The notes beneath the pieces are model-generated. The model saw only the letters and a list, made by a program, of their open reading frames with translations. It searched no databases and was not told the origin of the DNA. Below are positions 9,333 to 64,000 of a stretch of 64,000 nucleotides of DNA, piece by piece (position 1 is the first letter of the stretch; the number at the start of each line of letters is the position of its first letter). The position numbers were made by a program, and so were the translations under genes. Source of the stretch: Chrysomallon squamiferum (lineage: Eukaryota; Animalia; Mollusca). Location: NCBI GenBank assembly GCA_012295275.1, contig CM022677.1, positions 15,128,001-15,192,000 on the forward strand. The letters are read 5' to 3'.

Positions 9333-9389
9333 GTAGGTTTCATTCACATTAATACATACTAATCTAGTACAAATTAGTATTATTATTAT

Positions 9390-33258: not shown

Positions 33259-35265
33259 ACAAATCTGGCTAAATAGTAGGAAACAGTGACTTGCACATGA
33301 AACAAGATAGTTGTTTAAATATAGCTATCATACCACCAACTCAAACTTTGGATGTTGTGATGTCCAAGATTTCAGAGGATTTTCTTAACCAGCTTGGAAG
33401 ACCTTTCAGGTAAGTCAGACAAAAGGCAGATCAGTAGATTTTATACTTATGTAGTTAGTTTGATATCTTTAAATGTTCTTAATTTATATTTTTGCAGGGA
33501 GATGAAGGGATATTAAATTTATTTTTATTTTATTTTATTTTTTTAATTTTTTTAATGAAGAAAAATAGAATTTTAAATAATTATTTAAAAATATGTAAGA
33601 GAAACATGAATAGTAATAATAGCAACAGCAACAACCACCAGCACCACAACAATAAGAAAAAGAATAATTAAAATAAAACAAACCTGTAAAAACCAGTACT
33701 TCATTTCCTGATTCTGTTTTATAAAAATTCCATGATATTCATGATAAATGTACCTTCCAAATGCATAGACATCAAGTTGGTGGTAATTATGTTATAAACT
33801 GCCATTGATCAGGAAGAAGCAGATGTAAATCCTTACAACTCTGTTTCGTACCTGTCAAAACTTTATACACAGAAGTTATTAGTTTCCTTGTCAGTGTTGC
33901 AGTATCCTACGATTGTCTGAATTATTTTGTTCAGGATTCAAATCTGATATATATATTTTTTTATGAATTAATTATATCATCTCATTCAAAACATTAGCAA
34001 TTTATTATTATTAATTAATTAAAATTCTCGTTATCTTTTGGGGTTAAAAGATTATTATTGTGGATAAATTTAATGTTGTAGCCAGATTATTAACTTATAT
34101 TTTTAATCAAATCTAAAATTAGATGTATAGAATCAGTTGTAAGTGTTCCAAAAAAGTAATGCAGTTTGTAATCAAAATGACTGAATTCACATACCTTGTG
34201 AAGAGTGACATTAACAGTTTGTTATTAGAACTGAAAAGCTTTGGTATCTGTTATGATATAGTTATCATGTGTCTGTAAATTATTTTTTAGTTCATTCTAT
34301 CAAGTTCTGTCAAATTGTTGTGATTCATTAACAGTTCTTAAAAATAATCATTTGTTCTTATTGTGGGATTTTTGACAATGATTTATGATTAGCAAGTCTG
34401 GTTATACCTTCAGTTGAAATGGCATATACTAGGAGTTGAAGTATTTGGTGCTGTCCAGCAGGTATTTAAATACATTATTCATTTTATTTCAGTTTTAAAT
34501 ATTTCTTCAGTCTTTCACAAAATTCTATGCAAAATAGTTTTCTTACATTGAATTAAGCAACTTACATACAAATGTAATATATTTGTTTTTGTAAAATCAT
34601 GAAAATGATTAGCAATTATTGTATACTGATGCTGTGTCTGCACATAAAATCTCATTTATTGAAAGAATCTGTAGAATCACTAAGGACTAATTATTTGTTC
34701 AGTTATAAAGACACCTGCCATGAAATGGCAGTCTGATTTTAAGATTCTTTTTACTTTACTCTAACTTTTTTACTTCATTTTATTTATTTATTTTGATTTA
34801 TTTATTTATAAAAGGAGCAATAATTAATAACCAGATAATTCTATAAGTAAAATCAGTACAAATATAATTGTGTGTGTTTTTGTAGGAGATGAGACTCAGT
34901 TGTACAATGGAGGTAATGGTTACTCATGTTGGGAACATTAAACAATCACACAAAAAATATCAAACAGAACTTGAAGAGAACAAGTGAGTTGACACTGTCT
35001 TTTCTCTTTAATTGACAAAGATGATAATGATATTTGTATAAAAATTAAGGTGAAAAGTAATTAGAATGTAATATTTTTATCAGAAGCTAATGTTAATTGC
35101 TTGCATTTTTTTTTTTTTTTTTTATTAGCCCTAATCAGATATACACTGATGAAAAAGGCTGTTAATTCAGATATTTGTAAGAACAAATAATGTAAATTAT
35201 TTGTTGCTGAATTGAAAGCTCTTAAGAATTAAAGATGGCATTGTATTGTCTTTTTTTTGTTCTTG

Positions 35266-35311
<46 letters not shown>

Positions 35312-39100: not shown

Positions 39101-42100
39101 CTGTTTTTGAATGGGAAGGTCCAAAGACACCAAAGGACCTGATGTCATTTTTGCAGTTTGCCAGTTACTTCAGATGATATGTTAAAGGATTCTCAGTTAC
39201 TGCTGGACCTTTGCATTCTTTGGTGAACAGGTTCCAAGATAAGAAAAATCAAGCATTGTTAAAGTTCTTGGGATGAGAGTTGTCAAAAGAGATACTTTAA
39301 AAGAGATGCTAACTTCAGCTCCAATATCAGGAAACACTGATTTAAGTGAACTGTTCAAGTTTTCAAGGTGTGGGAGCAGTTCTGTCACAGGAGCAGAATG
39401 GGCAAAGGTAAGAAATTACATATGTTAGACAGAGCTTGAGACCCACTGAGAGAAACATGAATAATTACAGTTACATGAAATTAGAGCTTGTTGGTCTGAA
39501 ATGGGCTGTGACTGAAAAGATTGAAAATTATCTTCTCAAACATCAATTTACCATATATACAAACAACAGTCCACTAAGTCATCTTGATACCACAAAGTTA
39601 CATGCAGTGGAATAAACATGGGGCTCTCAGCTGGTAGAATTTGATTTTGATGTGAAATATCATTCAACACAATGAGAATGCGGATGGTCTATCCAGGAAG
39701 AAATTTCACAGAATTATTTCTACTTCAGTGGAAGCTGCTTTAGAGATACTGCTAGTAGTACAGAAGTTCCACATACAATGAGACAAGTTATAAAAGGTGG
39801 TGGAAGAAAAGTCGCACAGTAAACTGTAACAGTGGAACAATTTTTAGAAGAACTAGCAGTGATGCAGGCAAAAGACAAGTTAGTAAGGAGATTGCTGTAT
39901 TACATGGCTACCATGCAGAGCTGAGAGAAGATTAGAAGAATCAGGTTTCTTCACACTAATCTGGCAATGGCAAAGATTATTTCTTGAAAACAAAGTACTT
40001 TACAGAAAAGCAAACGTCCCAACTTGGCAAATTTGCTGTTCATCTTATTTAGAAGAAATATCATCACATCCCTTCCTCTCTACAAACATAAATACAATTA
40101 TAATTAATAAATACTGTCTTAGAATGTCTTAGAAAATATCCTTTTGACCTGAAAAACAGAAATATTTGCAGATTGTGTTGAATGGTTTAATTATCTAAAT
40201 CTGTTGTGTTTTCTAGATTCAAGGATTTTCTGTCTGAAATGTTTAATTATGTGTGCACACATGGACAGGAAGACACATTTCACTTTCTTTTATAATGGAG
40301 CCAGAAACAGTCTGATGGAAGCACTAATGTGATTTGATTCTGTGCCTACCCACACTTCATACACTGACTTACACATTGACTAGTGAGAAGTGTTTGATAA
40401 TTATACAGAAGACACAGCAGTCAGTTTAATTCATAGTTTACAGTTTTCTCTCTCACTTTATTCCAGTGATTAACCACTGTGAAATAAAATACTTGATAAC
40501 CAATTTGACTAGAAAATAAAATAAGGAAAGAAAATAATTAGGAAAAGCAGCTAAAAAAAATTCATAAATCACCTTTCTCCTCGATATAACAGCTATTGAA
40601 ACAGACCTATTATTTTACTAATTATTTATTTATTATTATTTTTATTATATGTAAATTAACAGAATTTAACTTCAAACACTGTAAATGTTTAAAAAAAAGA
40701 CCAAAAATTAAAACCTGATATCACATAATACTAATTTTCATTTAGAATTTAACAATTTATAAAACTGTTTATTTCTTTAAAACATTATTCCGAAATCTGT
40801 AGAAATTAATGGTGGTTTAAGACCTGGCACAGACACAATACAAGACAGATTATTAATGGAGCTCAGTGTGGAATGGGAAACGGTAATGTTTCAAGGATAG
40901 AGTGAGCTCTGGGATCATTTCAGATTCTTATTTATTAAAACTAGTTGTAATTAAAACATTTATCAATTTAAATACTAGTATATTAAAAATTTAACAAACT
41001 ATTAATCATATATATGTATGTTATAAGTTTTAATATACTTCTATGTTATATTTACAGATGACTGAACTTCCACTGCAGTCCATTTTGTCCACGATGTTGA
41101 TCATGTCAGTTCACATGACAGAATTCTCACATTATCTCTATGTTGTCTGAGCAGAATGTTCTCTACAGACCAAAGGTTTGAAACTGCTGGTTTTTATGTG
41201 TCAAAGATATAATTAAACTAATACTATATAAGAAAATAAGTAAAACAGAAAAGTTATTATTAACAAAAATCTTATATACAACATCCTATGTTTTGGAAAT
41301 TAAAAAATAAATAAATAAATAAATAAAAAAGATAAAAGCAAAGTGAACTCTTTATTATTAAAATCCAAGAAAAAAAGACATCCAAAATATTATTTTGTTT
41401 ATTTATGGTGAACAGTCTTGTTAATTATAAAGTTTGACACAAAACTGAAGAAACTTGCTGGTTATGAACACTAAAAATTATAAACTTCTGTATATTTTAA
41501 AAAATAACAGACAAGCAGATAATTTTCAAGAGATATCTTAATCATGATATAAGATGTAAAATGCATTTATTATGACTAAATAATTTGTAATTTTTAATAC
41601 ATCAGGTAACTTTTAAATAATAATTTGCTATCCTTTCCAATGATAAATGTTATAGTTTTTAAGTAAATCAATTTTATTTATCAGTGATAAGTTTTGTTTG
41701 TTATTTTTACAGGATACACAAGCCCTTGCTGACCACAACAAGTTCTATCAGGCCAAGGATGACCACTTGACCAGGCTTGTAGTACAATTCAGTGAAGAAC
41801 AATCACTTCTCCAGTTTGTGGTGTTAAAAGAAATTTGTACAAACTCAGAAACTCATATGAGTTCAATGTTTTGTAATCAAATGCTGAGTATAATGGAAAG
41901 GTAATTCAGTTTACAACTAGATTTTATAAACTGTAAAATATAAATCATTTAATGTCATATGAGAATATTTTAATATTATTATTATATATAATGTTCTTTT
42001 TTTAAATAATGGTATCTGTAGATGCAAAGAAAAAGACAAAACGTGACATTGATAAAGCAGTTGGGAGAAAAGGACTACTTTAGAAAATGTATCTTCAAAA

Positions 42101-42570
42101 ATTAACAGATAAATATTACTGATCTTACTTGTTGTCAATTTTTATAAAATATATTAATTTATGTACTTAATTAAAAGTAAAATGGAAGTTACTGCTTTAA
42201 GAAAGAAAATATATATATATATATACAATGAAAAATAGAGGTCCAACAAGACTGTTTAAATAAATATAATTAAACTTTATTTTATTTCAGTTAAATTAAC
42301 TGTACTTATTATTGGCTGAAAACATTTCTTCAGATTCAAATGATAAAATATAAAATTATAGTGGGTCTTGTTAAAATGTTTGAATGTAATATTTTATATT
42401 TCAGTCACCACAGAAAGCTATTAACAAGAACTGATGTACACTGAATCTAAATGACTTGACAAGTTTGCCTCCAAGTTCTTCAGGTTTTCTGACTACCGAA
42501 CTAAGTAAACAGAAGATAAAACATCTCCACAGTAAATATAAAGAACTGAATAACTGGATAAAATAACATT
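33259..42570 (+). pseudogene. Decayed multi-exon gene of unknown identity
   Basis: AG...GT-bounded exon-like blocks at about 33259-33409, 34887-34983, 35334-35386, 35665-35710, 37502-37609, 38001-38082, 41059-41175, 41713-41900 and 42404-42570. Most contain stops. Part is duplicated at 60955-63998. Confidence 0.45.
38430..39700 (+). mobile_element. Decayed Ty3/gypsy LTR-retrotransposon pol (RT-RNase H)
   Basis: PSHSPYSSP..IMRKTD..IHLCVDYRWLNAKTRKDCFPLPTIEESLDAL, DKTAFITPIGLFE, LKPSKR..KEVKYLG, TDPDKIKAV, NYSYMKLELVGLKWAVTEK..YL..FTIYTNNSPL. Many frameshifts; no LTRs recognised. Confidence 0.92.
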
Positions 42571-43029
42571 TTAAAAACATTACTTGTGTGAATCATGGAC
42601 TGTTCTTATTGAAGAATTTATAATATTGTGATACTGAATTTAGATTCAAAGTTACAATGTTGTTCATGAAAGATGTGATCAAATTTATTCAGTATACTGA
42701 ATGTTTGGACCAGACACAGCACCAAGTACAGGCAAGTCTGTGGTAAAAGAAGTTACTTTTTTAAAATGATTTAGTGTCAGAAATCCTTTATTACTGACTT
42801 AAAATAAAAGTACAGACTTCGTATTAAAAAATGTTTGGTTTAAGGGAGATACTTTTTTTTTTTTAAATTTAATTTTATATTTTTAAATAATTTTGTTTTG
42901 ATAGAATACTGTACTTAATAATCTAATCAAAACTTAAAATAAATAAATACCAAGAGTTCTGGTATAAATGTACCCTATAAAACATCGTTAAAACATAAAA
43001 TGGAATCAGTTGACCTATTTAAATAACAG

Positions 43030-43590
43030 AGTTGAACAGACTGGCTTTTGGCTTTTTTACCAAATGTACTTTAACACCCGAAGGTGCATAGTCACGTGAC
43101 ATAACGTCATCTCAAAATAAAAAAAAAAGTATATAGGGTGGGGGGTGAAAGAAAGGACATGATATATTGTCAACCTAACTCTTGTGATTTGTAAAAAAAA
43201 CAAAGATCTTCATTACTGGCTTTTGGCTTTTTGACCAAAAGTACTTTTAACCCAAAGGTGCTTAAGCTTCGCCCGAAGGAGCTTAAGTTAAAGTACATTT
43301 GGTCAAAAAGCCAAAAGCCAGTAATGAGGATCTTTGCAAATCACAAGAGTTAGGTTGACAACTAAACTCTTGTTATCGTAAAAAAAAAAAAAAAAGTTCC
43401 CCATGATTGGCTTTTGGCTTTTGGCTTTTTAACCAAATGTACTTTTGACCCGAAGGTGATAATGTTCCTTCGGGCAAAGCCAAAACCTGAAGTTAAAAGT
43501 ACATTTAGTTAAAAAGCCAAAAAGCCAACAGCCAATATGAGTTAAACTTTTTTTTTTACAATAACAAGAGTAGAGTTGAAATATATCATG
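43030..43590. repeat. Rearranged terminal hairpin cluster of parvovirus-like element 1 (one half hairpin and two full hairpins)
   Basis: Stems 43167-43250/43287-43361 and about 43362-43449/43492-43578. Loops contain CCCGAAGG...CCTTCGGG. Arms carry reiterated (TGGCTTT)n. Confidence 0.88.
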
Positions 43591-43763
43591 ATTTTCTGCG
43601 ACTTCTTTTTTGTTTTGTTAATAATGTTATTTTTCATTGTATTTATATATAAAATTAATATGACAAAGTAAATTTAATTATTTAACTTTTATTAACGTAA
43701 CAATGTAACTATGATTAACATTTTAAACAGCATCAGTGATATCATTTGTTTATGATATAATAT

Positions 43764-45898
43764 TCATTTATAGGAATGAAAAATGTCAAACACTTTATAA
43801 TTAATTTGCGATGGCAGAATAATGTTTTCGATATCAATGTCCAAAGCTTGGTTATTATTCATATACGCTTCTGGAACTGTATTATCAGCAGGGTTATTGT
43901 CATCTTCAGATGCTATAAACCGATCTTGAGAATGTTCATCTGACGTGTTACCACTTATCATATCACAGTCTCATCGTTTTGCTTTCAGAAGTTTTCGTTT
44001 CTTCTTTGGAGATTCATTGATGATGTCTTCATTCTGATTGAGATCTTTCTCTTCATTTTCTATATAGGCTTCGATGTTATCGTATTGCCTCTTTACTCCA
44101 CATGATTCTTGTGATTCGTTGTCAAAAGAGTCATTGAAGTAACTATACTTAGCTTGAATTGTCTTGTCGTTTTGTAGTGGATTGAGTTTATCGTTAAAGA
44201 ATTGTTTATCGTTTTCAATCGGAACCATTATTTCGTCTTCAGATGGATCTTCGCACAAGGTGAATAATTTAGGATGTAGCAATCCGTAAGCTCGTTTTAG
44301 TGTATTGCTTTTCTTCAAGTGCTCGATGAAGTACAATCTAGTTTTCATAATACTCATTGGGTTGATGTAATGTTCTGTCCAAAAGGAATGTTGCTGTTTA
44401 AATTACATAAGCTTGCTTTGCAATACACCGGTGTCGTTCCCTTTCGCTCTCATGTTGCCTTACTGCCACTGAGAAGATCTTTGTATTTGTCTATGTTTAC
44501 TTGGGTAATAGCTATTTCTTCTCTAATAACAATTTTTTTGTCACCCAGCATCTGCCATGGAAAATTGTCTTTCGCTATTTTACCGGAACATGTCAAAGGT
44601 TCAAACAAACTCGACGACAACATTGTCTTGCCGGAATCGCTCTCGCCTTGTAAATAGATTCCAATTTTCTTTTTTGCCTTTGCCTTTCAAAAGGGTATTC
44701 ATTAGTACATAGAACCATCACTCTGGTATCTCTTGTTCCTGGCACCAACTGTTAAATAGTTTCAAAGAATCTTCTGGTGTCATATAGTTTTCTAGGTTAT
44801 CGTCGAGAGCTTTTATCTAATCGTAGGCACTTTTATCTGCTTGTTCCATTAGGTATTTGGTTCTTGCTGCTTTAAATATTTTTTTCCAGATATGTTGGCA
44901 ACAGCATTACAAAGAGCTTTAAATTCATTGCTCGATGTATCGAATTTGCTTTTTGAGCATATTGAGTTTATTCACATCTGGATACTTCTGAACCAATTTG
45001 TCAAAAAAAAAGTCGAATGTGTCTGCTGATTTGGTAGACATGAGGTGACTTGGAATCTTTTTCAGGCTTGTTAGTTGGAATATCATCATCAATGTCTATA
45101 ATGTTCTTTGTTTCTTGATTTATCTCCTTTACTGTCATTCCTTGTCCATGTTGTAACACGTCACTGTGTTCATTTAAAAATTCCTGAACCGTCATTTTTT
45201 TCTTGGGAGGCTTAACTTCAAATGTCTTTATATCTTCGTTGATAGACGTGTCTTCGAATACAGTATTTTCATTATAATTATCTTTAGCCAGTTTTTTCTT
45301 GATCCAGTAATAGATTCCATTTATTGAGCATGTCCGGACAATTTGTTCCTAAAACATTTTCTCGTCATCTCTTATTAAGTAGTTCATGAATTCAGATACA
45401 GAGTATTTGTATGGCTGACGTAACTTCCTTAACTTTATATACCCTTTTTCAGCCAGAACAGCTCAGTGTAAACGTCTATACTGACGATCTTGACTTGGAT
45501 GTGTCATCGTTGTTGTCCATATGATATGGACATGACTTCCATTTGTAGGTATGTTGGAGTCCATATCACACGATTTATCGTGGTACACTAACAGCATCTT
45601 CCAGTTTTATTCCTTAACATGTTTTAAGTTCAGTTATCACTCTATCCTGACCTCTCATCATGAACTCCGATTGCGGAGTCGACCAATGGTCCACGCACTT
45701 GTCTAGAATGTCTTGGTGGTCCATGACGAAACTCTTGATATAATTCTTTCCCATGGCGTAAACATATTTTCCGTTCTTATCTTTTCAAGGCATCTTGGAA
45801 CCAGATAGTTGGGATGCACCAAGTCATTACTCTTTATGTCCCAATATAATTGAGTAATATTCAGAAGTATTAGTAGCGTCTTCAATATATTTCTCCAT
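43764..45898 (-). pseudogene. NS1: Parvoviral NS1/Rep pseudogene (element 1)
   Basis: ATG at 45898. HUH motif GSHVHIIW..PSQDRQYRRLH* (about 45540-45465), Walker A IGIYLQGESDSGKT (about 44665-44625), YKDLLSGSKATCERKG, IMKTRL..YGLLHPKLF. Colinear with 49050-51227 but broken by stops and frameshifts. Confidence 0.93.
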
Positions 45899-45971
45899 AG
45901 TGGTGCTGGATTATAACCATGCTTCTTTAACGTGTAGCAAGTCAGTTAATGACAAACGACAAAAATATTTT

Positions 45972-46040
45972 TGAACGTCAGCTTTATTTATACCAATATT
46001 TACATGACGTCATTGATATGACGTAATGAGATGTTACGTG
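45972..46040 (-). promoter_or_regulatory. NS promoter of element 1 (CRE/ACGT motifs plus TATA)
   Basis: Minus strand reads TTACGTCAT-N4-ATGACGTCATGTA-N7-GTATAAATAAAGC, nearly identical to 48934-48979. Confidence 0.75.
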
Positions 46041-46148
46041 ATCTGTAACACAACAGACTTTTCACTGTGTTCTTTTTGGCAAATAGTTCTTTAAAATAGT
46101 AATTAACGATAAGTAGTAAAATAACTAATATGAACAATGAATAATTAT

Positions 46149-46269
46149 TTAAATAGGATAAGAATAATCAGTTTCGTTTTCTTTAATTTAGGAAACCGTT
46201 CTGTCTCCTGTATGTTCCATGTAATGGCTAGACAACTCGTCATATCGACTTTCTTCGATTCGAATTGTC
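46149..46269 (-). pseudogene. VP: C-terminal remnant of the capsid-like gene of element 1 (truncated by the gap)
   Basis: Minus strand gives DNSNRRKSI*RVV*PLHGTY / GDRTVS*IKENETDYSYPI*, matching the end of the 707-aa ORF (DNWNRRRNRRGQLWPVHGAYGDRTVETMANSMDWSYPI*). Confidence 0.85.
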
Positions 46270-46469
46270 NNNNNNNNNNNNNNNNNNNNNNNNNNNNNNN
46301 NNNNNNNNNNNNNNNNNNNNNNNNNNNNNNNNNNNNNNNNNNNNNNNNNNNNNNNNNNNNNNNNNNNNNNNNNNNNNNNNNNNNNNNNNNNNNNNNNNNN
46401 NNNNNNNNNNNNNNNNNNNNNNNNNNNNNNNNNNNNNNNNNNNNNNNNNNNNNNNNNNNNNNNNNNNNN
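46270..46469. other. Assembly gap (200 N) between the two viral elements
   Basis: Exactly 200 N; the distance and relative orientation of the flanks depend on scaffolding. Confidence 0.99.
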
Positions 46470-46495
46470 AGATTCGACTACCCAGCTATAACTGA

Positions 46496-46747
46496 AATAA
46501 TAGGGCTGATAGTATATTATTAGACCCTGCTATAAATATAGGAACATCTGTAGATGAATCGGCTGTTGAAGGTATATCTGATTATACTAAAAATCAGATT
46601 GAACAAGCAATTAATGAACTAGGGAATTTCGTAAATACAGAAGGAAAATATATAGATACCGACGTCACACCCAATGAACGTAATCAGATAGAGGCTGAAG
46701 AAGACGAAAACGTATCATATATATTTACGCGTATACCGGTTTCATGA
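46496..46747 (+). CDS. 3' part of an acidic upstream viral ORF whose TGA overlaps the capsid ATG (ATGA)
   Basis: 83 open codons (NNRADSILLDPAINIGTSVDESAVEGISDY...EAEEDENVSYIFTRIPVS*) with no ATG. Preceded by one TGA at 46493 and then the gap. Confidence 0.5.
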   Translation, partial: NNRADSILLDPAINIGTSVDESAVEGISDYTKNQIEQAINELGNFVNTEGKYIDTDVTPNERNQIEAEEDENVSYIFTRIPVS

Positions 46748-48867
46748 CAAAAGGCAAACGACTTTTGACGAAGACAGAGGTCACTCGTCTGTGGGCTATA
46801 GCAAAATCTAAAGCATTTAATAAATTAGCTGAACTAAATGTCCCCTATTCAAAACGACAAGAAAGGTGGCTTCAGATCAGACGTCAGTATCCAAATATAC
46901 AAATTCCGAATAACGATTTCTATCAGGCAATTCAGAATATTGGGCAAGACTATAACTCTATTAAAGATTCGGACGAAGACGACCCTTTCGGCACCCCTTT
47001 ATTCTACGATAACGAAGAACAACAAGGAGATTTACACGACTCATCCAGACATCCAGATCAATCAACTATGAAACGACATTCATCTGAACCATCTGGAGGA
47101 CCGGATGCAAAGTTTAGAGATAATAAACAATTATCTAGCAAAGTCTCTCAAGATGTATTAGACAGGTCTAATTCTAAAGGAACCTATTTACAACCTGAAG
47201 AATCGGTGATGGAACCGGATTCAATAATGAATGAAGAGGTTACAGATACTGGTGGAAGTGAAGCAATAGAAGGTGCACCTATGGCGTCCGCTACTGGTAA
47301 TAATGTATTATACCAGGGTTTTGGTGGAACTACAAAAGTATTAGATCCTAGATACATTACGATTAAAAAGACATTTAAAAGTACATTTACTAGTACAAAT
47401 AATTTTACAAAAGAACGAAAAGCAGAAATGAAAATATTAGATAACAATACAGATGATGTAAATTGGAAAAAAGCAATAGGAGATCCAAATGTTTGTGAAT
47501 TTAAATTTAACCATGGTGGACATATTATTCCATATTGGTATAAAGCTGCTAGTACTAAACCTGATGATTGGAATTTGCCAGATGATTTTCTTGGCTATAA
47601 GGTCAAGAAAATAGGTTTTAATATAAACAACATGATTATTCATGTATTGAATAATAATAAATCAGATCCTAACGAAGTTCCTGTTATGGCACCACCTAAT
47701 TCACGTGTATGGACATTTACAGATATACATAATGATTACGGTTTACCAGAAAATAATTTAATGTTACATCATAACCATTACTTCAGAGATGAAGAATGTA
47801 TGGATAGTGTTTCTGAACGTAGCATAAAGGTACAACCAGATAGAAAGCTATACATGCCTAGTGATATGGCCATGCAATTATTAAATCATGCATGGACTGG
47901 TACAGATGGTATTAATTATAAAGCAGAATCTCCAAATTATATTTATGATATGAAGAAACACGACGGTTATCGTGAAACCGTTATTAGTGCAGGAGGCTTT
48001 GCATTAGATTATACTTGCAAAGATTCTCCGTTAATATTGTTTCCATCTGAAACATCACATACTCTGAACTTTACAGATGTAACAGGTTTATGTCAAAAAT
48101 CTAAATATCAATGTGCTAATGAAAACAAAGGCAATTTAGAAGTATGGCCTACTCATGATATAATAATTACTGACAATTCTAAACATCCTATGGGTACAGC
48201 TATATGTTGTTATTTCAATCATCAATATAGACGGATACATTATACAGCATGTTTTCAAAATAAAGCATCTAATGTACTTGGTGCACCTTCAATGGTAGAT
48301 GATGGAGGTACCAAATATAGTAATCAAGGTGTAATGCATAACAATTCAAATAATCCGAATGTTGATGCATGTAAAGATGGATCACATAGACGTACATACC
48401 AATGTAATAGACCTCCGATATTCATGATTGGATTATATCCTGATGTAGAAAAAACTAGTGGAGGAACTACATTATTTTTTAACTATCATGCAAACATTCA
48501 AATAACTTATTACAGTGAAATAGAATTTGTAGTTAGAACAGGTATGTGTCCTAAATACATTCCAATTGGGTTGGGTGGATGTCCAGGTAATATGTTAGGA
48601 CTAACATTCAAGGGAAATGAATCTACACCAATGGGAAATAAAGATAACGTTAAACATACAGAACAAGATCAATTTTTGGGTGAAACAGAAGCAAAATATA
48701 AAGAAAGAATACAAAAAACATGGAAAATGCGTTGTTTTGCTCCTGTTTGGGATAATTGGAATAGACGTAGAAATAGACGTGGACAATTATGGCCAGTTCA
48801 TGGTGCATATGGTGATAGAACAGTTGAAACAATGGCTAATTCAATGGATTGGTCATATCCAATATAA
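46744..48867 (+). CDS. VP: Parvovirus/densovirus-like capsid protein (707 aa, uninterrupted)
   Basis: Intronless ORF with a low-complexity acidic/Ser N-terminus and Gly-rich segment (TGGSEAIEGAPMASATG..GFGG). It then has beta-strand-like blocks resembling parvoviral jelly-roll strands (HIIPYWY, GYKVKKIGFNI, RPPIFMIGL, ANIQITYYSEIEF). Adjacent to NS1 and a hairpin. No PLA2 motif seen. Confidence 0.8.
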   Translation: MTKGKRLLTKTEVTRLWAIAKSKAFNKLAELNVPYSKRQERWLQIRRQYPNIQIPNNDFYQAIQNIGQDYNSIKDSDEDDPFGTPLFYDNEEQQGDLHDSSRHPDQSTMKRHSSEPSGGPDAKFRDNKQLSSKVSQDVLDRSNSKGTYLQPEESVMEPDSIMNEEVTDTGGSEAIEGAPMASATGNNVLYQGFGGTTKVLDPRYITIKKTFKSTFTSTNNFTKERKAEMKILDNNTDDVNWKKAIGDPNVCEFKFNHGGHIIPYWYKAASTKPDDWNLPDDFLGYKVKKIGFNINNMIIHVLNNNKSDPNEVPVMAPPNSRVWTFTDIHNDYGLPENNLMLHHNHYFRDEECMDSVSERSIKVQPDRKLYMPSDMAMQLLNHAWTGTDGINYKAESPNYIYDMKKHDGYRETVISAGGFALDYTCKDSPLILFPSETSHTLNFTDVTGLCQKSKYQCANENKGNLEVWPTHDIIITDNSKHPMGTAICCYFNHQYRRIHYTACFQNKASNVLGAPSMVDDGGTKYSNQGVMHNNSNNPNVDACKDGSHRRTYQCNRPPIFMIGLYPDVEKTSGGTTLFFNYHANIQITYYSEIEFVVRTGMCPKYIPIGLGGCPGNMLGLTFKGNESTPMGNKDNVKHTEQDQFLGETEAKYKERIQKTWKMRCFAPVWDNWNRRRNRRGQLWPVHGAYGDRTVETMANSMDWSYPI

Positions 48868-48900
48868 TATAGCGTATGAATACAGTTAATAGTCTTTTAA

Positions 48901-49000
48901 TAACGTTACGTTCAATTTGTCACGTATACCATATTACGTCATAATAATGACGTCATGTATATAATAGTATAAATAAAGCAACGTTCAAAAGTTTTTCAGT
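48901..49000 (+). promoter_or_regulatory. NS promoter of element 2: ACGT/CRE cluster, TATA box overlapping AATAAA, and Inr
   Basis: TTACGTCA at 48934, TGACGTCA at 48948, TATAAATA at 48968 (AATAAA at 48972), TCAGT at 48996. Conserved in element 1. Confidence 0.78.
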
Positions 49001-49049
49001 CGTTACTGATCATTCTATACTATTTAACATAATATATAGATAGATATAA

Positions 49050-51227
49050 ATGGATCGTTTCGTAGACTTGCCGGATGAAACTTATTATAGTGTTTTGGTG
49101 GGTCATATCAATTACGACATGGTCCATCCAAAATAACTGGTACCGAGAAGTCTTGCCAAGGATAAGGATGGTAATTTTATTTATGCAGTGGGAAAGCAAT
49201 ATATAAAATCCTACCAGATGGATATGCAAGAGGTTCTAGACAAGGTAGTTGACCATTGGTCTAAACCTGGCTATGAAGAATTGTCACGAGGCCAAGATAG
49301 AGTAATAAACGAATTAAAAGCTTTTTTGAGGAATAAGTCATGGAAGACTCTACTTGTATACCACCAAAAGGACTGTCAGGCCATAACGGATCATACTACG
49401 TATGGGACACATTGCCACATAGTATGGAAAACCACTCTCAAAACGCCATCACAAGATAGGCAATATAGAAGATTACATCGTGCCATCTTGAATGAGGGTG
49501 GATATCTTAAGATATTAAAATTAAAGGATCCACAACGATCATCATTGCAGCATTACATGAAATATCTAATGAACGATAATGAGAAACAATTTATGGGAAC
49601 AACCGACCAGAGTATGTTAAACATATGGAATGAGATAGAGAAGGAAATAAACGAGAATGACAATGAAATACTGAATATCTTGAGTGACTTTTTTGACCAA
49701 TCGGGTTCTAAAAAATTGGATAAAACAATAGTATCGAACATAAAGGATCCAGTAAGAAAACAAGACATTATTGATAAACCATCTACATCACATTATAATA
49801 ACAAAGGAATGACAGCTGCTGATGTCAAATGTGACAATACGTTAATCCAAGCAATGGATACATCAGACATTATAAAAGATGAAAAAGTGGACAAACCAGT
49901 TATCCCGTCACATTTGATTAACACAAAATCATCGGAGACATTGGAATTTTTCTATACCTTGATTAAACAGTATCCTGAAATAAACAAACTGAACTTACTA
50001 ATTGGAAAATTTGATTCAGGAAGCAACGAGTTTAAAGCTCTCTGTAATGCCGTTGCTAACTCTTCGGGTGAAAAGTTGTTCAAAGCAGCTAGAACTAAAT
50101 ATCTCGAAGAACAGGCAGATAAGTCAGCGTATGAACAGATCAATATCATGAACGATACAATTGACCATTATATGAATCCTGATGATAGTTTTAAGATCTT
50201 TAATTCGTGGTGTAGGGAACAGGAAATACCAGAAAGATGGTTGTATACATTGATTGTAGCGTTGTTAAAGGGAAAGGGCAAAAAGAAGATAGGGATTTAT
50301 TTTCAAGGAGAATCAGATAGTGGGAAAACAATGTTGTCAAGTTCCCTATTTGAATCCGTTTCCACAGCAGGAAAGATTGCCAAGGATAATTTTCCTTGGC
50401 AAATGTTAGGAGGGAAAAAGATCATATTAGGAGAGGAAATATCGATAAATCAATCCAACATTGACAAATATAAAGACCTGTTGAGTGGTTCTAAAGCAAC
50501 CTGCGAACGAAAGGGAACGACACCTTGTTACTGCCGAGGGAACATTTGTTTGTTAAATTCAAATACTAAATTCGGCGACGGCCTCACCACATCGCAGATA
50601 AGAATAATGAAAACACGATTATTCTTAGTAGAAGGACTTAAACGAAGTAACATACTTACACAATGCTATGGATTATTACATCCCAAACTATTCGTTGTTG
50701 GAAGAGAACCATCCGACGATGAAATGACACTCGCTATGGAAAACGATCGAGAATATTTCACGAATATAAACAATATTCATCAAAATGATAATACATTTGA
50801 AGGACGATTAAGCTATTTCAACGATCACTTCGATAACAGTCAAGAGGATTCACCTACTGAACATACCAATAATATTAAAACAGAAATAAATGAACAGCCA
50901 CCGACAGAATACATAATAATTCCAGATTCAGATGATGAAAGTACATACAATCCGTCACAAGACATGTTTATTCAATCTCAAAATAAAATCAGAGAATAAT
51001 TACAGGATAAAAAAGGAATGAAACGCAAAAGGTATGAGGTGGATACTGAAGACATTTCGGATGATTCTATTGACCCTAATTACATAACAATTGATCATGA
51101 GCCAGAAGATCCGACAGAAAAACGTTTTAAGTTTTATATCCCACCATCCCAACCATTTGAAACAATGTTCACCGAGACAATACCGGAATCACAGTTTAAC
51201 ATCTTCAACAAATATAAAAACGAATGA
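49050..51227 (+). pseudogene. NS1: Parvoviral NS1/Rep (HUH endonuclease plus SF3 helicase), about 725 codons with two in-frame TAA stops; catalytic core 49188-50999 open
   Basis: HUH motif GTHCHIVW, candidate catalytic Tyr in YMKYL, Walker A GESDSGKT, Walker B ILGEE, B' KDLLSG..CERKG, motif C LLNSN. ATG 49050 and the 51018-51227 ORF are in the same frame, separated by TAA at 49134 and 50997. Confidence 0.95.
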
Positions 51228-51491
51228 ACATATATAAAGACTGTTCTTTTAATTTAAATTACTAAATATATAATGATAATGTTTTAACGGATTAATTAAT
51301 GTTGCATATAGTTATATATTATAATGTTAATAAATATATATTAAAAGTTATATAGTCTTATTATTAATTACATATTATAATGTTAATAAATATATATTAA
51401 AAGTTATATTTTCTTTTTATTATTTATATTATATTATATATTATAATTATATATTATAATAATAATTAATAAACATGCCGGATGATGATAG

Positions 51492-51873
51492 ATCCCAACT
51501 CAACTCTTGTGTAATTTTTAAAAAACAAAGTATAACTGTAATCGATTTTTGGTTTTGCGGTCTTAAAAGCCAATGTGTACTTTTAGCCCGAAGGTGACTA
51601 GCTCCTTCGGGCGTAGCCCGAGCCCTACGGTCATAAGCTAAAAGTACACATTGGCTTTTAAGACCGCAAAACCAAAAATCGATTACAGTTATACTTTGTT
51701 TTTTAAAAATTACACAAGAGTTGAGCTTATGACCGTAACTAGCTCCTTCGGGCGTAGCCCGAGCCCTACGGTCATAAGTTAAAAGTACATATTGGCTTTC
51801 AAGGCCAAAAAAACAAAAAACCATTCGAGTTATACATTGTTTTTTCAATAATAAACAAGAGTTGGGTTGGGAT
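51492..51873. repeat. Terminal branched (T/Y-shaped) hairpin of element 2 with a duplicated loop and second arm
   Basis: 89-bp arms 51499-51587 and 51637-51725 appear perfectly complementary. Ears are GCCCGAAGG/CCTTCGGGC and CGTAG/CTACG. The loop is repeated at about 51738-51778, followed by a diverged arm ending GTTGGGAT at 51873. Confidence 0.92.
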
Positions 51874-52074
51874 GATCGCTGACTGTAAATCATAAAACAA
51901 AACACCTGAATTGATGTAAGGAACGTGTTTTTATTAGTTTGCGTGCATTTCAATACGAATATTGAGTCCTTTTTTTCACATTCGCAGTTTACAAAAGGCA
52001 CTTTACGTACACATTCCTATTCACAAAATAAATTTAAATAGGATAAGTTTACATTTGTATAGACAGATAGATAT

Positions 52075-52122
<48 letters not shown>

Positions 52123-52817
52123 CTACATACAAACACTGCGTATATATATTTTCCTACTATATTTTTCGGTGATAATATTAAAAAGAACCCTTACTTTTAG
52201 AATTAATGTTTGGTCTTTATTCAGAAACCTGAAAAACGCCTTCAGCTAACATTACCGCCGTTTATACGACAAATCTGAAATTTACCAGTCCTCTGATCAA
52301 AAACAATTCAAGGCCTCAGAAAAAGGAAATATTTTATTATAAACGACAATTAATATTAATATTATTATGTTTTCCCCCAAATTAATGTCCTCCTTATATA
52401 CTGAAAAATTATGGTCTTTAATAATAAGTTATTTTATTATTAACAATAATAAGACTATACAGAAACGCGTGAAGTGCTAGATGAATGCTGTATTTATTAT
52501 TGTATTGATATTACTGAAAATTAACTGTGCACCTTTCAGTGTCACAATGTGATACTTTGTTTTATGACAGCAGTAACATGACATTCCGCGACACAATTTA
52601 TATCTCTCCCTACATGAAATTATTGATTAATCTAAAATTCAAATTTATCAAATTAAGACTATATCAGATTATTTTTTAAAACACTGAGAAAAGTAAGTTA
52701 ATCTAGAATGAAATTCCATGTTTATTCAATAATATAACTGATAATCTCTAATTAATGTAATTTTAATGTCTCATATAAATAATACAGACGTTAAAAAACT
52801 TGCGTCTTATTTTGTTA
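51874..52817. repeat. Host low-copy repeat flanking the viral hairpin, inverted paralog of 12807-13498
   Basis: Reverse-complement match to 12807-13498, with an extra internal segment. Confidence 0.88.
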
Positions 52818-54738
52818 CATTATCAGTGTAAAACGGCGATATTCTTTAGTTAAATGTGGTTTTATAAAAGTTCACGATTTCTTATGTAATTTATATTATT
52901 ATTATTATTATAAAAGAAGTATTTAGATTTTATCTCGACAGAAACAATAAACTAAGAATAAATCTGATTTCTCTGATAATTTTACGAGGCCTAATAAAAA
53001 ATTCGAAGTAATTTTTATATCCGCACTCAGAACAGTTCTAATGAAACTAAGAGAATAGCGTCAAACATATATAGGAAGCTTCCGTTTTTACAGAAAACTA
53101 AAAACAAAACAAAAAATAAAACTATTAAGGTTCTATTATTGTTATTGTTATTTAGCTGTTGACAGAGGACTGTGACAACTATGGTGTCTGCTTCACTGAC
53201 TCGTTGATAATTACTGGGGAGCGGTTATATTAATATATAATGTAATAAGAGAACTTCAGGTATAATAAGAAATGTAAAGTATATATACAACCTTTTAATG
53301 AATGTAATGAAAACAAATAAACTTCGCATAATAAAATAACCTTCTTTGTTCTCAGCTAATCAGTACACACTATCGTGATTTCAGGGAATTAACTCTGATA
53401 TTTTAAAATATAACCTGATATAAACATACGATATTACTAAAATATAAGATTAACATTTGTCAACACACTTAACCTACAAACTGTAAATATCACTGCTCAT
53501 AATTAATTCTCATCTTTTTACTTTTGTAACGCCATGTAGAATTATCATTTATAACTGTCAGTAATAACTGTGGTTATCAATATTTTCTGTAGTGTATATA
53601 ATATCTAAGTTCCACGTACAGTAAAATTACACCTTTTTATTATACGATTTAGAATTAGCAAAGTAAAATATAATATCTTGTTATTGTTAATAAAACGGAC
53701 ATTCGTAGCGGTATCTGAAGTTAGTTGCACAAAGTTCTGCTGTGTTTGTTTTTCAGTGAAACAAGTTTCTGGTGTTTATAAAATGTCACACTAGATGCGC
53801 TCTCTTTATTTCTCGATATATGTTTCACGTCACATATAAAGCTACTGTTATTTATAAAAACATTATAACACGGAAGTTCCATCTATATTTCTGAATGTTC
53901 ACAGTGAAATCATACCTTTAATTTTCAGTATAATTTGTCGTATAACTTACTGAATATCATCTCATTCAAGAAGGATAGTTGAGAAATTGAGAAATAACGA
54001 GGCCTTCCAGACTGCAGTTCTTTGTTACTAAGCAAAACTGAATTAGATATTAGCTGGACCTGATAATTAAATATTGATTTTCTTTTTCTAGATAGGTATG
54101 TATTGAAAAGCTGAGGTTACATTGTTAAATAATAGCAAACAATTTATGGTTCTTTCACTAAATTTAAATGTGTTAGTATAAAGAGGTCTGCTTGAAGCAA
54201 ATAAACTATTGTCATTCAGTTCTAATATGTGTGCTAAATAGCGTTCCTCATAATAACATATAACGTTATTTTTTCTCAAAACTTTATGAATAACAAATTA
54301 TTAAAATGATTCTGAAAAAAGGATGGTGAAAACTGAGTTACACTTTACTTGAACAAGAACATTTTTTTTTTCTTTACTGCAAAACAAAGGACATTTCAAC
54401 TGTAATTTACAGGGACAAGCTTTGTTTTCTATGACATAAAACAGTTAATAAAATAAATAAATTAATTAATTAATTTATTAATATTAATGTTAATCTCGAA
54501 GATCCTTCAGTATTTTCAGAATACACTGAACCGCTCCCAATATTTTCAACAGTGTTTATACATTTTTTTGCTGAAGTTTTAATTTCTTATCACTGTAATC
54601 TGAGAGGTTAGATAGATAGGTGGACAGATAGATAGACAGAGAGACAGATAGACAGTGAGACAGATATACCTACAGAGAGATAAATCCATAGACAGACAGA
54701 CATACAAACAGTACCAGTAGATTCAAAACTTCAATAAA

Positions 54739-55023
54739 CTAAACTCCTTGACAAATATCACACAAGAATACAATATCTTTAAAGTCTGCACCAGCTGGGA
54801 TTTCGAGATTTGCGCAAGAAACAAGACAATACCAATTTGGGCACCCGTCACATCCTATGAACTCGTCCGAATTCATTCCATCATCAACTCTGCCACAGAG
54901 TTCACATTTTTCTTGTGTATCTACTACATCTCTGTCTTCCAGTTCAGGCTCATCACCATCAACGTTTTCTTTGGCTGCATCCACCGGTTCCTCAAAATAT
55001 GGGGCCACTTTTACCTCATCCAT
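54739..55023 (-). CDS. Stand-alone 94-aa acidic PHD-finger protein
   Basis: CELC-x14-CDGC-x2-WYC-x3-C...FLCDIC follows PHD spacing with the usual His position read as Cys. ATG in CCAATGG context with an in-frame stop just upstream; no splice acceptor visible. Confidence 0.7.
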   Translation of the reverse strand: MDEVKVAPYFEEPVDAAKENVDGDEPELEDRDVVDTQEKCELCGRVDDGMNSDEFIGCDGCPNWYCLVSCANLEIPAGADFKDIVFLCDICQGV

Positions 55024-55469
55024 TGGTGCCAGAATTTATTTAACGTGATATTATTATTTGATGAATTATTGTAAAATTACTATTTCATTTAATGTTTTTC
55101 ATTTAATTTTATTTATTTATTTTATTTATTTCATTTCATTTATTTCAGTTGAAAAAGGAGAGGCCCCGGTATCTGTATGAAAAGGCTGAAAAACAGTATT
55201 TACATATATTTGAAACCTTTATACAGTGAAATGAAATTTTTATGAAACCATACAAATTTACAGTCGTAGTGAAACCCAGATCTCTCTTTCTCTAATCATA
55301 ATAAATAACATGTAGAAATTTTCACGTATCAAAGCGGAACTTCGTAACAAATTGAAATTCTTGATCTTATTTTTACTCTTAATGAAGAAATATTAAGTTT
55401 TATTAAAGAAACATTTTAAATATATGAAATAAATTAAGAATGCGCAAATAGAGATACTACTACTACTAT

Positions 55470-56309: not shown

Positions 56310-57180
56310 GATATCTTTTGAATCCAATATCTGTGGACATTTTTCGCCAGGTCACCAAATGTGACCAAAGTTCCGTTTAAGCGACTGGGATGTTAAAAAC
56401 ACTATGCATTAGTCGTGCAAAAAAACAACAACAGCAACACATTAATGCTAAAGTGAAGCCAGCTAACATTTCCAACCTTAACGTCATAGAGTTATCGGTC
56501 GGTTAACAAAACAGTTTATCACAGGCGATAACTCTATCAAGCAAGAGTTTGCTATTGTTTTTCCTTATTAATTCAAGTATTAGTTCGCTAAAGTGAAGAC
56601 AACGAACAAATCTAGCGAACTTTTACACCGTCAGGTTAAAGAATGATTGGTTAGTTAACGGAACAAGTTATCATGGCAGATAACGCTATAGCCTTGTATT
56701 TGCTATATTTTTCTTTTCAATTCCAGTAGGCTTACTTACACGGAATTTAAAAAAAAAAAAAAACGCTTGTTTGAACATTTATTAACGGCTGATTTGAATA
56801 ATTAGGACTCAATTTTTCTGGCTATTTTAATTAATAAAGAATTTTGCTATTTCATTTTAGTTGTTGGCAAAATAAGGTAAGCCAATACATCGAGTTTATT
56901 GAACTTCGAGCAACTCTGTTCACTGGAAAAATGTGGACATAGAAATAAGTAATGTTTCATAGTTTTAGAAATTCCATAGCTACAGTTTGGCGTTCTGTTT
57001 ATTTTGCGTTTGAATCTGATTGAGTTTAGGTTAGTTGAGTAGCTGATTCTGAGTTTGGTAAGGTTCTTATGTAGTTTCTTACTAAAATTATTTTGGAATT
57101 TGAAGATGAAAGGTGTAACTAATGTGATTTTATATCTTTACTATTCACCCACGCCCGTCCACAATTCAATATGGCTGTCG
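56310..57180 (+). repeat. Direct, internally deleted paralog of about 16530-17460 joined to about 18966-19190
   Basis: Shared blocks TATCTTTTGAATCCAATA.CTGTGGACATTTTTC, CCAGGTCACCAAATG.GACCAAAGTTC and AAGTAATGTTTCAT...AGAAATTCCA.AGCTACAGTTTGG. Confidence 0.8.
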
Positions 57181-59966
57181 GTTTCTTCAAGGCAGTGCAC
57201 TGTATCTAGTATATTACAGTCTGTGGTATGTACTATCCTGCCAGTGAGTATGTTTGTTCAAGGCAGTGCATCGTGTCTGCTATATTATAGACTGTGGTAT
57301 GTACTACCCTGTCAGTGAGTCTGTTTGTTCAAGGCAGTGCATCGTGTCTACTACATTACAGATTGTGGTATGTACTACCCTGTCAGTGAGTCTGTTCAAC
57401 TCAGTGGATCGTGTCTAGTATTACAGACTGTGGTATGTACTATCCTGTCAGTGAGTCTGTTTGTTTTTTCAAGGCAATGCATCGTGTTTAGCATATTACA
57501 GACTGTGGTATGCAGTATCCTGCCAGCGAGTCTGTTTGTTCAAGCCAGTGCATCGTGCCTACTATATTACAGACTGTGGTATGTACTATCCTGTCAGTAA
57601 GTCTATTTCTTCAAGGCAGTGCATCGTGTTTAGTATATTACAGACTGTGGTATGTACTACCCTGCCAGTGAGTTTGTTCAAAGCAGTGGATCGTGTCTAG
57701 TATTACAGTATGTAGTATGTACTACCCTGCCAGTGAGTCTGTTTGTTCAAGGTCAATGGATCGTGCTACTATATTACAGACTGTGGCATATACTATCCTG
57801 TCAGTGAGTCTGTTCAAGTCAATGCATCGTGTCTAGTATTCTACAGACTGTGGTATGTACTATCCTCTCAGTGAGTTTGTTCAAGGCAGTGGATCGTGTC
57901 TAGTATTACAGTATGTGGTATGTACTAACCTGTCAGTGAGTCTGTTTGTTCACGGCTGTGCATCGTGCTTACTATATTACAGACTGTGGTATGTACTACC
58001 CTGTCAGTGAGTCTGTTTTTTCAAGGCAGTGCACTGTATCTAGAATTACAGACTGTGGTATGTACTATCCTGTCAGTGAGTCTGTTCAAGTCAGTGCATC
58101 GTGCCTACTCTATTACAGACTGTGGTAGGTACTATCCTGTCAATCTGTTTGTTAAAGGGTATGCATCGTGTCTACTGTGGTTTGTAATATCCTGTCAGTA
58201 AGTCTGTTTATTCAAGGCAATGCACTGTGTCTACAAACTGTGGTATGTACAATTCTGTCAGTGAGTCTGTTCAAGGCCGTTCATCGTGCAAGCTAGTGGA
58301 TCTGTCTAGTATATTGTAGACTGTGGTATGTAGTACCCTGTCAGTGAGTCTGTTTTTTCAAGGCAGTGCACTGTATCTAGAATTACATACTGTGGTATGT
58401 ACTATCCTGCCAGTGAGTCTCTTTGTTCAAGGCAGTGCATCGTGCCTACTATATTGTAGACTGTGGTATGTACTACCCTATCAGTGAGTCTGATTAAGGC
58501 AGTGCACTGTATGTAGACTGTGGTATGTACTACCCTGTCAGTGAGTGTTTGTTCAAGGCCGGGCATCGTGTCTAGTATACTACAGACTGTGGTATGTACT
58601 ACCCTGTCAGTGAGTGTTTGTTCAAGGCCGGGCATCGTGTCTAGTATACTACAGACTGTGGTATGTACTACCCTGTCAGTGATTCTTTGTTGAAGCCGTG
58701 CATCGTTTCTAGTTGTTGTTACAGACTGTGGTATGTACCATCCTCTCAGTCAGTCTGTTTGTTCAAGGGAGTGCACTGTATCTAGTATATTACAGGCTGT
58801 GGCATGTACTACCCTGTCAGTGAGTCTGTTTCTTCAAGGCAATGCATCGTGTTTAGTATATTACAGACTATGGTATGTACTACCCTGTCAGTTAGTCTGT
58901 TTGTTTAAGGCAATGCATCGTGTTTAGTACATTACACACTGTGGTATTATCCTGTGAGCGAGTATGTTTGCTCAAAGCAGTGCATCGTGTCTAGTATATT
59001 ACAGACTGTGGTATGTACCACCCTGTCAGTGAGTCTGTTCAAGGCAGTGCATCGTGTCTAGTATATATTGCAGACTGTTGTATGTACTAACCTGTCAGTG
59101 AGTCTGTTTATTCAAGGCAGTGCACTGTATCTAGCATTACACAATGTGGAATGTACTACCTTGTCAGTGATTCTCTTTGTTGAAGGCAGTGCATCGTTTC
59201 TAGTTGTTGTTACAGACTGTGGTCTGTACCATCCTCTCAGTCAGTCTGTTTGTTCAAGGGAGTGCACTGTATCTAGTCTATTACAGACTGTGGCATGTAC
59301 TACCCTGTCAGTGAGTCTGTTTGTTCTAGGCAGGGCATGGTGTCTGGTATATTACAGACTGTGGTATGTACTACCCTGTTAGTGATTATGTTTCTTCAAG
59401 GCAATGCATCGTGTCTAGTTGTTGTTATAGATTGTTGTATGTACTAACCGATCAGTGAGTCTGTTTGTTCAAGGCAGTGCACTGTATCTAGAATTACAGA
59501 CTGTGGTATGTACTATCCTGTCAGTGAGTCTCTTTGTTCAAGGCAATGCGTCGTGTCTACTATATTACACATTGTGGTATGTACTACCCTGTCAGTGAGT
59601 ATCTTTTTCAAGGCAGTGCATCGTGTTTAGTATATTACAGACTGTGGTATGTACTACCCTGTGAGTGAGTCTGCTTGTTCAAGGCACTGCACTGTATCTA
59701 GTATATTGCAGAATGTGGTACGTACTACCCTGTCAGAGAGTCTCTGGTATGTATTACCCTGTCAGTGAGTCTGTTCAAGGCAGTTCATCGTGTCTAGTAG
59801 ATTACAGACTGTGGTATGTACTAACCTGTCAGTGAGTACGTTTGTTCAAGGCAGTGAATCGTGTCTAGATGTTGTTAAAGACTGTGGTTTGTATTATCCT
59901 GTCAGTGAGTCTGTTTAAGGCAGTGCATCGTGTCTAGTTGTTGTTACATACTGTGGTATGTACTAT
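57181..59966. repeat. About 65-71-bp tandem satellite, about 40 diverged copies
   Basis: Consensus TTCAAGGCAGTGCATCGTGTCTAGTATATTACAGACTGTGGTATGTACTACCCTGTCAGTGAGTCTG(TTTG). Confidence 0.97.
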
Positions 59967-60860: not shown

Positions 60861-60891
<31 letters not shown>

Positions 60892-60954
60892 CAACAACAA
60901 AAAAAAGCCAACACAATGGCCTCCTTAATTAAGTACATCAGTGAAAACAAAGAT

Positions 60955-61407: not shown

Positions 61408-61438
<31 letters not shown>

Positions 61439-63998: not shown

Positions 63999-64000
63999 TC

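Follow-up and report, generated by a model that had tools for sequence, protein, structure and literature searches.

Two diverged parvovirus-like elements of Chrysomallon squamiferum likely carry the capsid gene upstream of NS1

The arrangement of nonstructural (NS) gene before capsid gene is regarded as fixed in monosense parvoviruses: the replication gene leads, and expression of the capsid gene usually begins later. A 64,000-nucleotide stretch of the Chrysomallon squamiferum genome (assembly GCA_012295275.1, contig CM022677.1, positions 15,128,001 to 15,192,000, forward strand; hereafter the window) raises the question of whether the opposite order can belong to a lineage or is a one-off rearrangement. 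Its animal DNA is AT-rich and includes microsatellites, exons for immunoglobulin domains and a broken transposase of the Tc5 type. The window also contains two parvovirus-like elements, A on the plus strand and B on the minus strand, lying head-to-head across a gap of 200 N. We consider it likely that A and B are separate germline insertions of one parvovirus-like lineage with the capsid gene upstream of NS1 and a hairpin after NS1, and that this order is the native layout of the virus.

Element B was read in the direction of its genes, and its order was a capsid-like C-terminus, a promoter with a cyclic AMP response element (CRE) and a TATA box, NS1, a poly(A) signal and T-shaped hairpins. 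Its features, in window positions, are as follows.

46270..46469, no strand: gap of 200 N, equal in size to the window's other gap (9390-9589).
46149..46269, minus strand: last 121 bp of the capsid-like gene of B, in two frames, truncated by the gap.
45955..46027, minus strand: NS promoter of B, with a CRE at 46005-46012 and TATAAATAAA at 45983-45992, and with the sole AATAAA of the stretch from capsid stop to NS start.
43764..45898, minus strand: NS1 of B, an HUH endonuclease and superfamily 3 (SF3) helicase, with 11 frameshifts and 7 stops, part of which are likely assembly errors.
43688..43693, minus strand: AATAAA, candidate poly(A) signal of the NS1 of B, between its stop codon and the hairpin.
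43359..43590, no strand: hairpin B1, adjoining the NS1 end; compared with the hairpin of A, 164 identities, 51 mismatches and 25 gap letters.
43158..43361, no strand: hairpin B2, a long stem with two small arms at its tip (T or Y shape).
43091..43140, plus strand: just inside the partial arm, an E-box (GTCACGTGAC), half a CRE and the TATA-like TATATAGGG.
43030..43090, plus strand: partial third hairpin arm, matching both full hairpins at 88-91%.

In the 121 bp adjoining the gap, the C-terminus of the capsid-like protein of A can be read, with PLHGTY in one frame and GDRTV..DYSYPI* in the second. This match, taken in the best single frame or in the best two frames, exceeded 2000 of 2000 shuffles, both against the C-terminus of A and against P0021, a capsid-like protein. 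The hairpins at 43158-43590 folded at z = -20.8, and none of 100 dinucleotide shuffles was as good. An earlier sequence-only reading had placed a capsid C-terminus in the 121 bp and the same promoter, a decayed NS1 and hairpins behind it, in the order of element A; the analysis bears out all of this except the extent of the decay, which is discussed below. By their letters, the motifs at 43091-43140 are candidates for what is left of a promoter at the left end. An E-box inside a hairpin arm is reminiscent of the USF site of the p5 promoter of adeno-associated virus (AAV). The E-box 10-mer is not unique, and further copies occur at 55745 and 55830.

Element A has the order of element B, with a capsid-like gene upstream of NS1 and a hairpin after NS1, and is at least 5.4 kb long without its left end.

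46470..46743, plus strand: stretch upstream of the capsid ATG of A, an acidic and largely open frame without a hairpin and without a match in the protein set compared.
46744..48867, plus strand: capsid-like gene of A, 707 amino acids, open, 55% identical to P0021, without a phospholipase A2 (PLA2) motif.
48933..49004, plus strand: NS promoter of A, with a CRE at 48948-48955 and TATAAATAAA at 48968-48977.
49050..51227, plus strand: NS1 of A, a single frame of 725 codons interrupted by stops at codons 29 and 650.
51492..51873, no strand: hairpin of A, a perfect 89-bp stem with two small arms, followed by a repeat of its right half (130 nt, 87%).

The capsid-like and NS1 frames of A are separated by 182 nt. 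NS1 is followed by AATAAA signals and then by the hairpin, which folded at z of about -26 against dinucleotide shuffles. The acidic frame at 46470-46743 is a possible accessory gene or VP1-unique exon. A PLA2 domain is typical, though not universal, in the VP1 N-terminus of Parvovirinae and Densovirinae; its motif was not found in this frame or in the 707-amino-acid frame, and sequence further left lies in the gap.

The intergenic regions of the two elements correspond closely. The promoters of B (45955-46027) and A (48933-49004) are 85% identical over 73 bp, and TGACGTCA occurs at only two sites in the window, one in each NS promoter and each followed by TATAAATAAA. In both elements, the stretch from capsid stop to NS start has a single AATAAA, located within the TATA box TATAAATAAA. 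Judged by this overlap, one motif may mark both the end of the capsid mRNA and the start of the NS mRNA. No hairpin was found between the capsid stop and the NS start of A or B (z of -1.6 and -2.0 against base-shuffled controls). In both elements, a poly(A) signal and a hairpin follow within 175-265 bp after NS1, and no capsid sequence lies beyond NS1. The hairpin ends are rearranged in both. In parvoviruses, terminal hairpins of 120-600 nt bracket the coding region; here hairpins stand at the NS end of each element, the left ends being outside the window.

The NS1 of A matched Pfam Parvo_NS1 (PF01057) with E 2e-8 and 33.8 bits against a cut-off of 20, and its best match among solved structures was AAV Rep (Rep40/68; E 4e-9). 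The GESDSGKT and GEE motifs of SF3 helicases are present in the NS1 of both elements. The HxH motif and the downstream Tyr were invariant in 27 of 27 aligned sequences, marking an HUH domain by motif, and the form of the motif agrees with that given in the accessible text of PMC9896142. A structure model of NS1 (predicted local distance difference test, pLDDT, 36) was too poor to serve as proof of the fold. For the 707-amino-acid protein, identity as the capsid is likely, not proven. Parvovirus capsid proteins have a single jelly roll and build T=1 particles, and the structure model of this protein was too poor to establish its fold. As a lead only, all 27 Foldseek matches of its model at E<=0.001 were parvo-, denso- or parvo-like, with TM <= 0.14.

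The two NS1 proteins are 52% identical. Identity is 21 of 30 residues in the IMKTRL..HPKLF block, and the linker and tail, at 20% and 28% alignment identity, are as poorly alignable as the sequence-only reading had described them. Codons were compared over in-frame segments, from which three codons beside each break were dropped and 585 pairs were kept; stop codons and codons within two of a gap were also left out. Identity at codon positions 1, 2 and 3 was 0.63, 0.72 and 0.39 over the 585 pairs, and 0.72, 0.81 and 0.39 in the helicase core. Four-fold sites were identical in 21 of 70 cases (30%), where 0.303 is expected at saturation. A codon model rejected a ratio of nonsynonymous to synonymous divergence (dN/dS, omega) of 1, with twice the log-likelihood difference (2dlnL) at 274. 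dN was 0.26-0.46, depending on region and method. By the Nei-Gojobori method, dN/dS was 0.46/2.15 = 0.21 in the HUH domain, and dS was undefined elsewhere. The maximum-likelihood omega of 0.003-0.005 sits at the branch-length bound and is not a real estimate, so the upper limit alone was used; the profile placed it at about 0.03-0.06, and overall omega is about 0.2 or less. A gap-free helicase segment of 99 codons gave a 2dlnL of 102 by itself. Because this segment agrees, the choice of alignment is not the source of the selection signal.

These substitution patterns indicate that A and B diverged as working replicators under purifying selection, not necessarily as free viruses. The sequence-only reading had predicted a low dN/dS with saturated dS, which is what was found, and had judged from the divergence that A and B look like two different viruses and not a recent host duplication. 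The second half of that judgement stands; the first is narrowed to working replicators. If instead one rearranged insertion had been duplicated in the host and had drifted neutrally, the adjacent head-to-head position, the 85% identity of the promoters and the failure of trees to reject an A+B clade would fit. However, omega = 1 was rejected, third positions are saturated, A is nearly open, and the flanks of A and B have no common sequence, so that neither the homologous flanks nor the neutral divergence of a host segmental duplication was seen. We regard such a duplication as scarcely credible; the codon test rejects it, barring very long retention of both copies as host genes. As both gaps of the window are 200 N, the gap between A and B is likely a fixed-size scaffold join, and the distance, adjacency and orientation of the two elements across it therefore have no base-level proof.

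Short-read contigs were compared with the locus. Part of A is found in 9 of 11 listed runs, all from one organism and from three studies, and at least half of its words in 6; one of the runs may be the source sample. The contigs of four runs were compared with 42300-51300, and the records described here are the best 32 of some 2450 pieces. Run X1 has a contig that extends over 44713-46269, covering the NS1 start, promoter and capsid end of B. Since the capsid-promoter-NS1 junction lies within one short-read contig, the order of B is not a misassembly. No contig bridging the capsid-NS1 junction of A was found among the records listed. In contigs of X1 and X7, the base of a hairpin is joined to the start of a same-strand capsid-like gene (43588 joined to 46771), which suggests that a hairpin precedes the capsid at the left end. 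All four runs also contained additional NS lineages, whose identity to A or to B is about 86%.

The same contigs bear on the decay of B. Its frameshifts were counted relative to A and its stops within the aligned segments. Gap letters against substitutions in contigs compared with B numbered 23 and 10 in 1552 letters, 15 and 7 in 2024, 7 and 0 in 510, and 5 and 5 in 521; two shorter records over the helicase part had 1 gap and 4-6 substitutions. Among the records listed, the near-identical ones over the NS1 of A had no gaps. At least 2 of the 11 frameshifts lie at positions where all four runs differ from the window. Because the contigs differ from B mostly by small gaps and those over the NS1 of A are gap-free, the decay of B in the window is probably overstated. 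The sequence-only reading was thus correct that the NS1 of B appears decayed in the window, but B is likely less decayed than it appears there.

A contig of X7, the single RNA run among the four compared, covers the NS1 of B at 43922-45944 and stops about 40 nt downstream of the TATA box. It gives a weak hint of transcription of this NS1, from one study and from contigs only, with DNA carry-over possible. The RNA run had little or no cover over the NS1 of A; because a missing contig carries no weight, this was not used as evidence. Summed contig depth was 4-10 times higher over the capsid gene of A than over most of its NS1; contig depth is no copy number, stronger conservation of the capsid could explain the excess, and the value was not used.

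An apparent reversal could also arise if genomes of the normal NS-then-capsid order had integrated as head-to-tail or circular intermediates and were then trimmed, or if the assembly were wrong. The rearranged hairpin ends of both elements, and the position of B at a contig end with likely sequence errors, would be compatible with this. Against it, the poly(A) signal and hairpin follow NS1 closely in both elements with no capsid beyond, the trimming would have to have happened twice independently although dS between the lineages is saturated, and the X1 contig spans the junction of B. We therefore hold this explanation to be very improbable.

Relatives from other long contigs were no more distant from A and B than the two are from each other. 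NS1 identity was 277 of 467 (59%) between B and A, 278 of 469 between B and P0014, and 267 of 466 between B and P0011. Over the segments used for the B-A comparison, B was 57-59% identical to P0001, P0011 and P0014, and A was 61% identical to these three over comparable regions. A profile search returned 290 proteins at E <= 0.001 and 39 at E <= 1e-30, and 35 of 43 tree rows made up one clade with A and B. In the trees, A, B and a group of sequences from ENA formed a three-way split. The linker segments and tail of B were left out of the trees, and the first tree also omitted the fragments P0018 and P0019; for the wide-clade tree and the topology test, database proteins were cut to 620 residues. 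The ENA group probably comes from another host, because neither A nor B came back as a near-identical match. With dS saturated, omega = 1 rejected, flanks unrelated and relatives equally distant, the order predates the split of A and B. The earlier claim that the order is a property of the lineage and not a one-off rearrangement is supported to this depth, that is, for the common ancestor of A and B.

On each of two ENA contigs, 60,905 and 297,455 bases long, there are several capsid-like proteins along with members of four NS clusters. P0021 and NS1 relatives are on ENA contigs of matching size, and contigs of matching size were taken as the same contig. Elysia crispata proteins occurred in 2 of 10 clusters looked up, and the six named have partly neighbouring locus tags; one of the clusters contains a protein of Parvoviridae sp. 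Among 16 wider-clade relatives with a visible contig size, 10 were on contigs of 5.5-7.5 kb and none on longer ones, a size that would be expected of whole viral genomes. P0034, P0037, P0039, P0040, P0049 and P0052 are encoded on contigs of 6-7.5 kb. The NS1 proteins of P0033-P0055 are mostly 930-1120 amino acids long, with a C-terminal extension of 400-500 amino acids that had no Pfam match in those scanned. In the ENA copies, the capsid-like proteins are 93-95% identical (3 pairs) and the NS1 proteins 78-87% (5 pairs). A capsid more conserved than NS1 is the reverse of the usual pattern, and the contrast may reflect exchange at the gene boundary.

The same contrast would be accommodated if the ancestor were a bipartite virus whose capsid segment was fused to its NS segment with loss of the middle hairpins, either once in the ancestor or at insertion. 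A bipartite parvovirus is described in the accessible text of PMC10267136, the NS1 here comes with a promoter, a poly(A) signal and a hairpin of its own, and the nearest short-contig relatives are on 2.6-3.5 kb. No hairpin remnant remains between the genes, however, wider relatives reach 7.5 kb, and the capsid end and promoter of A align with those of B in the same arrangement, so that independent fusions would have to be near-identical. Such a fusion seems to us distinctly improbable.

The copy numbers raise a different alternative, in which the order arose after ancient endogenisation and NS1-driven hairpin replication multiplied the family in germlines like a transposon, with the capsid kept. 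Several diverged copies per genome occur in three data sets (the four runs, the ENA contigs and Elysia crispata), hairpins are stacked, and the genes of A are near-open. On the other hand, no convincing target-site duplication was found around the B-A pair (the best were 7-nt A/T matches), the 707-amino-acid frame is still open, wider relatives are on genome-sized short contigs, and the divergence among copies of one host is as great as that between data sets. No transposase was found in A or B, and the B-A pair does not show the marks of a cut-and-paste transposon. We consider a resident self-copying element of this kind unlikely.

Separate germline insertions of a lineage with capsid first thus remain our preferred explanation, and several observations count against it. 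Selection cannot tell a free virus from a self-copying resident element, and a clade of A and B was neither found nor rejected (approximately unbiased test, p-AU 0.34). All three lineages of the tight subclade (A, B and the ENA group) come from long contigs that are likely of the host, with one from ENA measuring only 8.4 kb, and the nearest relatives on short contigs are on 2.6-3.5 kb, too short for both genes. Seven locus scans of viral contigs, metagenome contigs and prokaryote genomes all returned no relative, and the gene order of relatives was not seen. The left ends of A and B both fall in or beyond the gap, and the hairpin-to-capsid joint has short sides of 30 and 39 letters with the intervening letters undefined. 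The capsid-like protein had no match in Pfam and no sequence match in PDB, where a search with the capsid alignment gave chance-level matches alone (E >= 0.44); its model had a pLDDT of 29, and its Atlas score of 0.91 was weak, with low recognition, and tied with anellovirus ORF1.

Under the preferred explanation, the virus would have a linear single-stranded genome of about 6-7 kb, replicated by the rolling-hairpin mechanism through NS1 as HUH nickase and SF3 helicase. A promoter in the left hairpin would drive the capsid gene and the internal CRE/TATA promoter NS1, with TATAAATAAA in the NS promoter doubling as the poly(A) signal of the capsid mRNA. Entry into the germline would likely take place at or close to hairpins left by earlier copies; stacks of hairpins and clusters of diverged copies would both follow from this. 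More tentatively, and with considerable doubt, we suggest that A and B represent an undescribed family-level lineage of parvo-like viruses of about 7 kb, likely of molluscs and other marine invertebrates. In such a lineage the cassettes would be reversed throughout, a single TATAAATAAA would act both as the NS promoter and as the poly(A) signal of the capsid, and NS1-driven integration into earlier hairpins would build germline clusters of near-intact genomes, some still expressed.

The surroundings of the elements are rich in repeats. Both outer flanks, at 42300-42900 and 51873-52817, are repeats; the left one has very high summed short-read contig depth, and the right one matches 12807-13499 in inverted orientation at 87-88%. 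An inverted repeat pair of about 1.6 kb (33743-35296 and 60861-64000) is 86-93% identical, with about 1.5 kb interrupting one copy. Tandem arrays lie at 22451-23764 (38-bp unit, 35 copies) and 57177-59966 (71-bp unit, 37 copies). Immunoglobulin-domain host exons are at 759-1121, 4189-4542 and 8957-9349, on both strands, with C2-set_2 above the cut-off in two of the three. A broken Tigger/pogo-like transposase occupies 14665-16381 on the minus strand (HTH_Tnp_Tc5, E 3e-9). A small PHD-finger-like frame at 54742-55035, minus strand, was slightly below the Pfam cut-off, and Rfam gave no matches in 42000-53000.

If the reverse order has indeed been kept across saturated synonymous divergence, gene order is no constraint and a different transcription scheme is implied. 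A large unnamed parvo-like clade also sits in public assemblies, and the occurrence in several hosts of near-open copies that bear hairpins and lie in clusters makes one ask whether these viruses integrate purposefully.

All parvoviruses carry NS on the left, according to the accessible text of PMC11357303. In the ICTV profile (PMC6537627), hairpin termini prime rolling-hairpin replication, NS1 nicks and packages, and the genome is 4-6 kb; its text does not list gene order. Unclassified genomes are monosense or ambisense in the accessible parts of PMC9896142, where neither the text nor the supplements describe a reversed order, and mollusc parvoviral sequences are placed outside known genera, without gene order, in the accessible text of PMC5013282. 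We found no report of a reversed parvovirus order in the accessible literature, figures and subscription papers lying outside the search. None of the close relatives whose names were looked up was a named virus. Among 28 proteins looked up, the nearest virus-named relative was that of Parvoviridae sp. QKE55000.1 (P0073; profile E 2e-22), which in the tree is no member of the clade that includes A and B.

Like monosense Parvoviridae (Parvovirinae, Hamaparvovirinae and Iteradensovirus), A and B have an NS1 with HUH and SF3 domains, a capsid-sized second gene on the same strand and T-shaped terminal hairpins of about 200-230 nt. Unlike them, they carry the capsid-like gene upstream of NS1 and so lack NS on the left, and contigs of their relatives reach 7.5 kb against the 4-6 kb of the ICTV profile. 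Members of the family package a linear single-stranded genome in virions, and A and B were seen as integrated copies. By these comparisons, A and B are parvovirus-like in NS1, depart from the family in gene order and are not assigned here to a named genus. In the Acheta domesticus segmented densovirus (bipartite, Brevihamaparvovirus), the accessible text of PMC10267136 describes cassettes each beside a T-shaped hairpin of 208-220 nt and a capsid without PLA2; compared by description, A and B differ in holding both cassettes on one molecule with no hairpin between them. The multi-copy NS1-like proteins of Elysia crispata (KAK3777758.1 and KAK3709042.1) fall within the 35-sequence clade of A and B, but form a separate branch and are about 25% identical to A. 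With invertebrate endogenous parvoviral elements, A and B share their nature as germline copies of parvovirus-like genomes; in contrast to other such elements, their hairpins and promoters are retained, their genes are near-open and their order is reversed.

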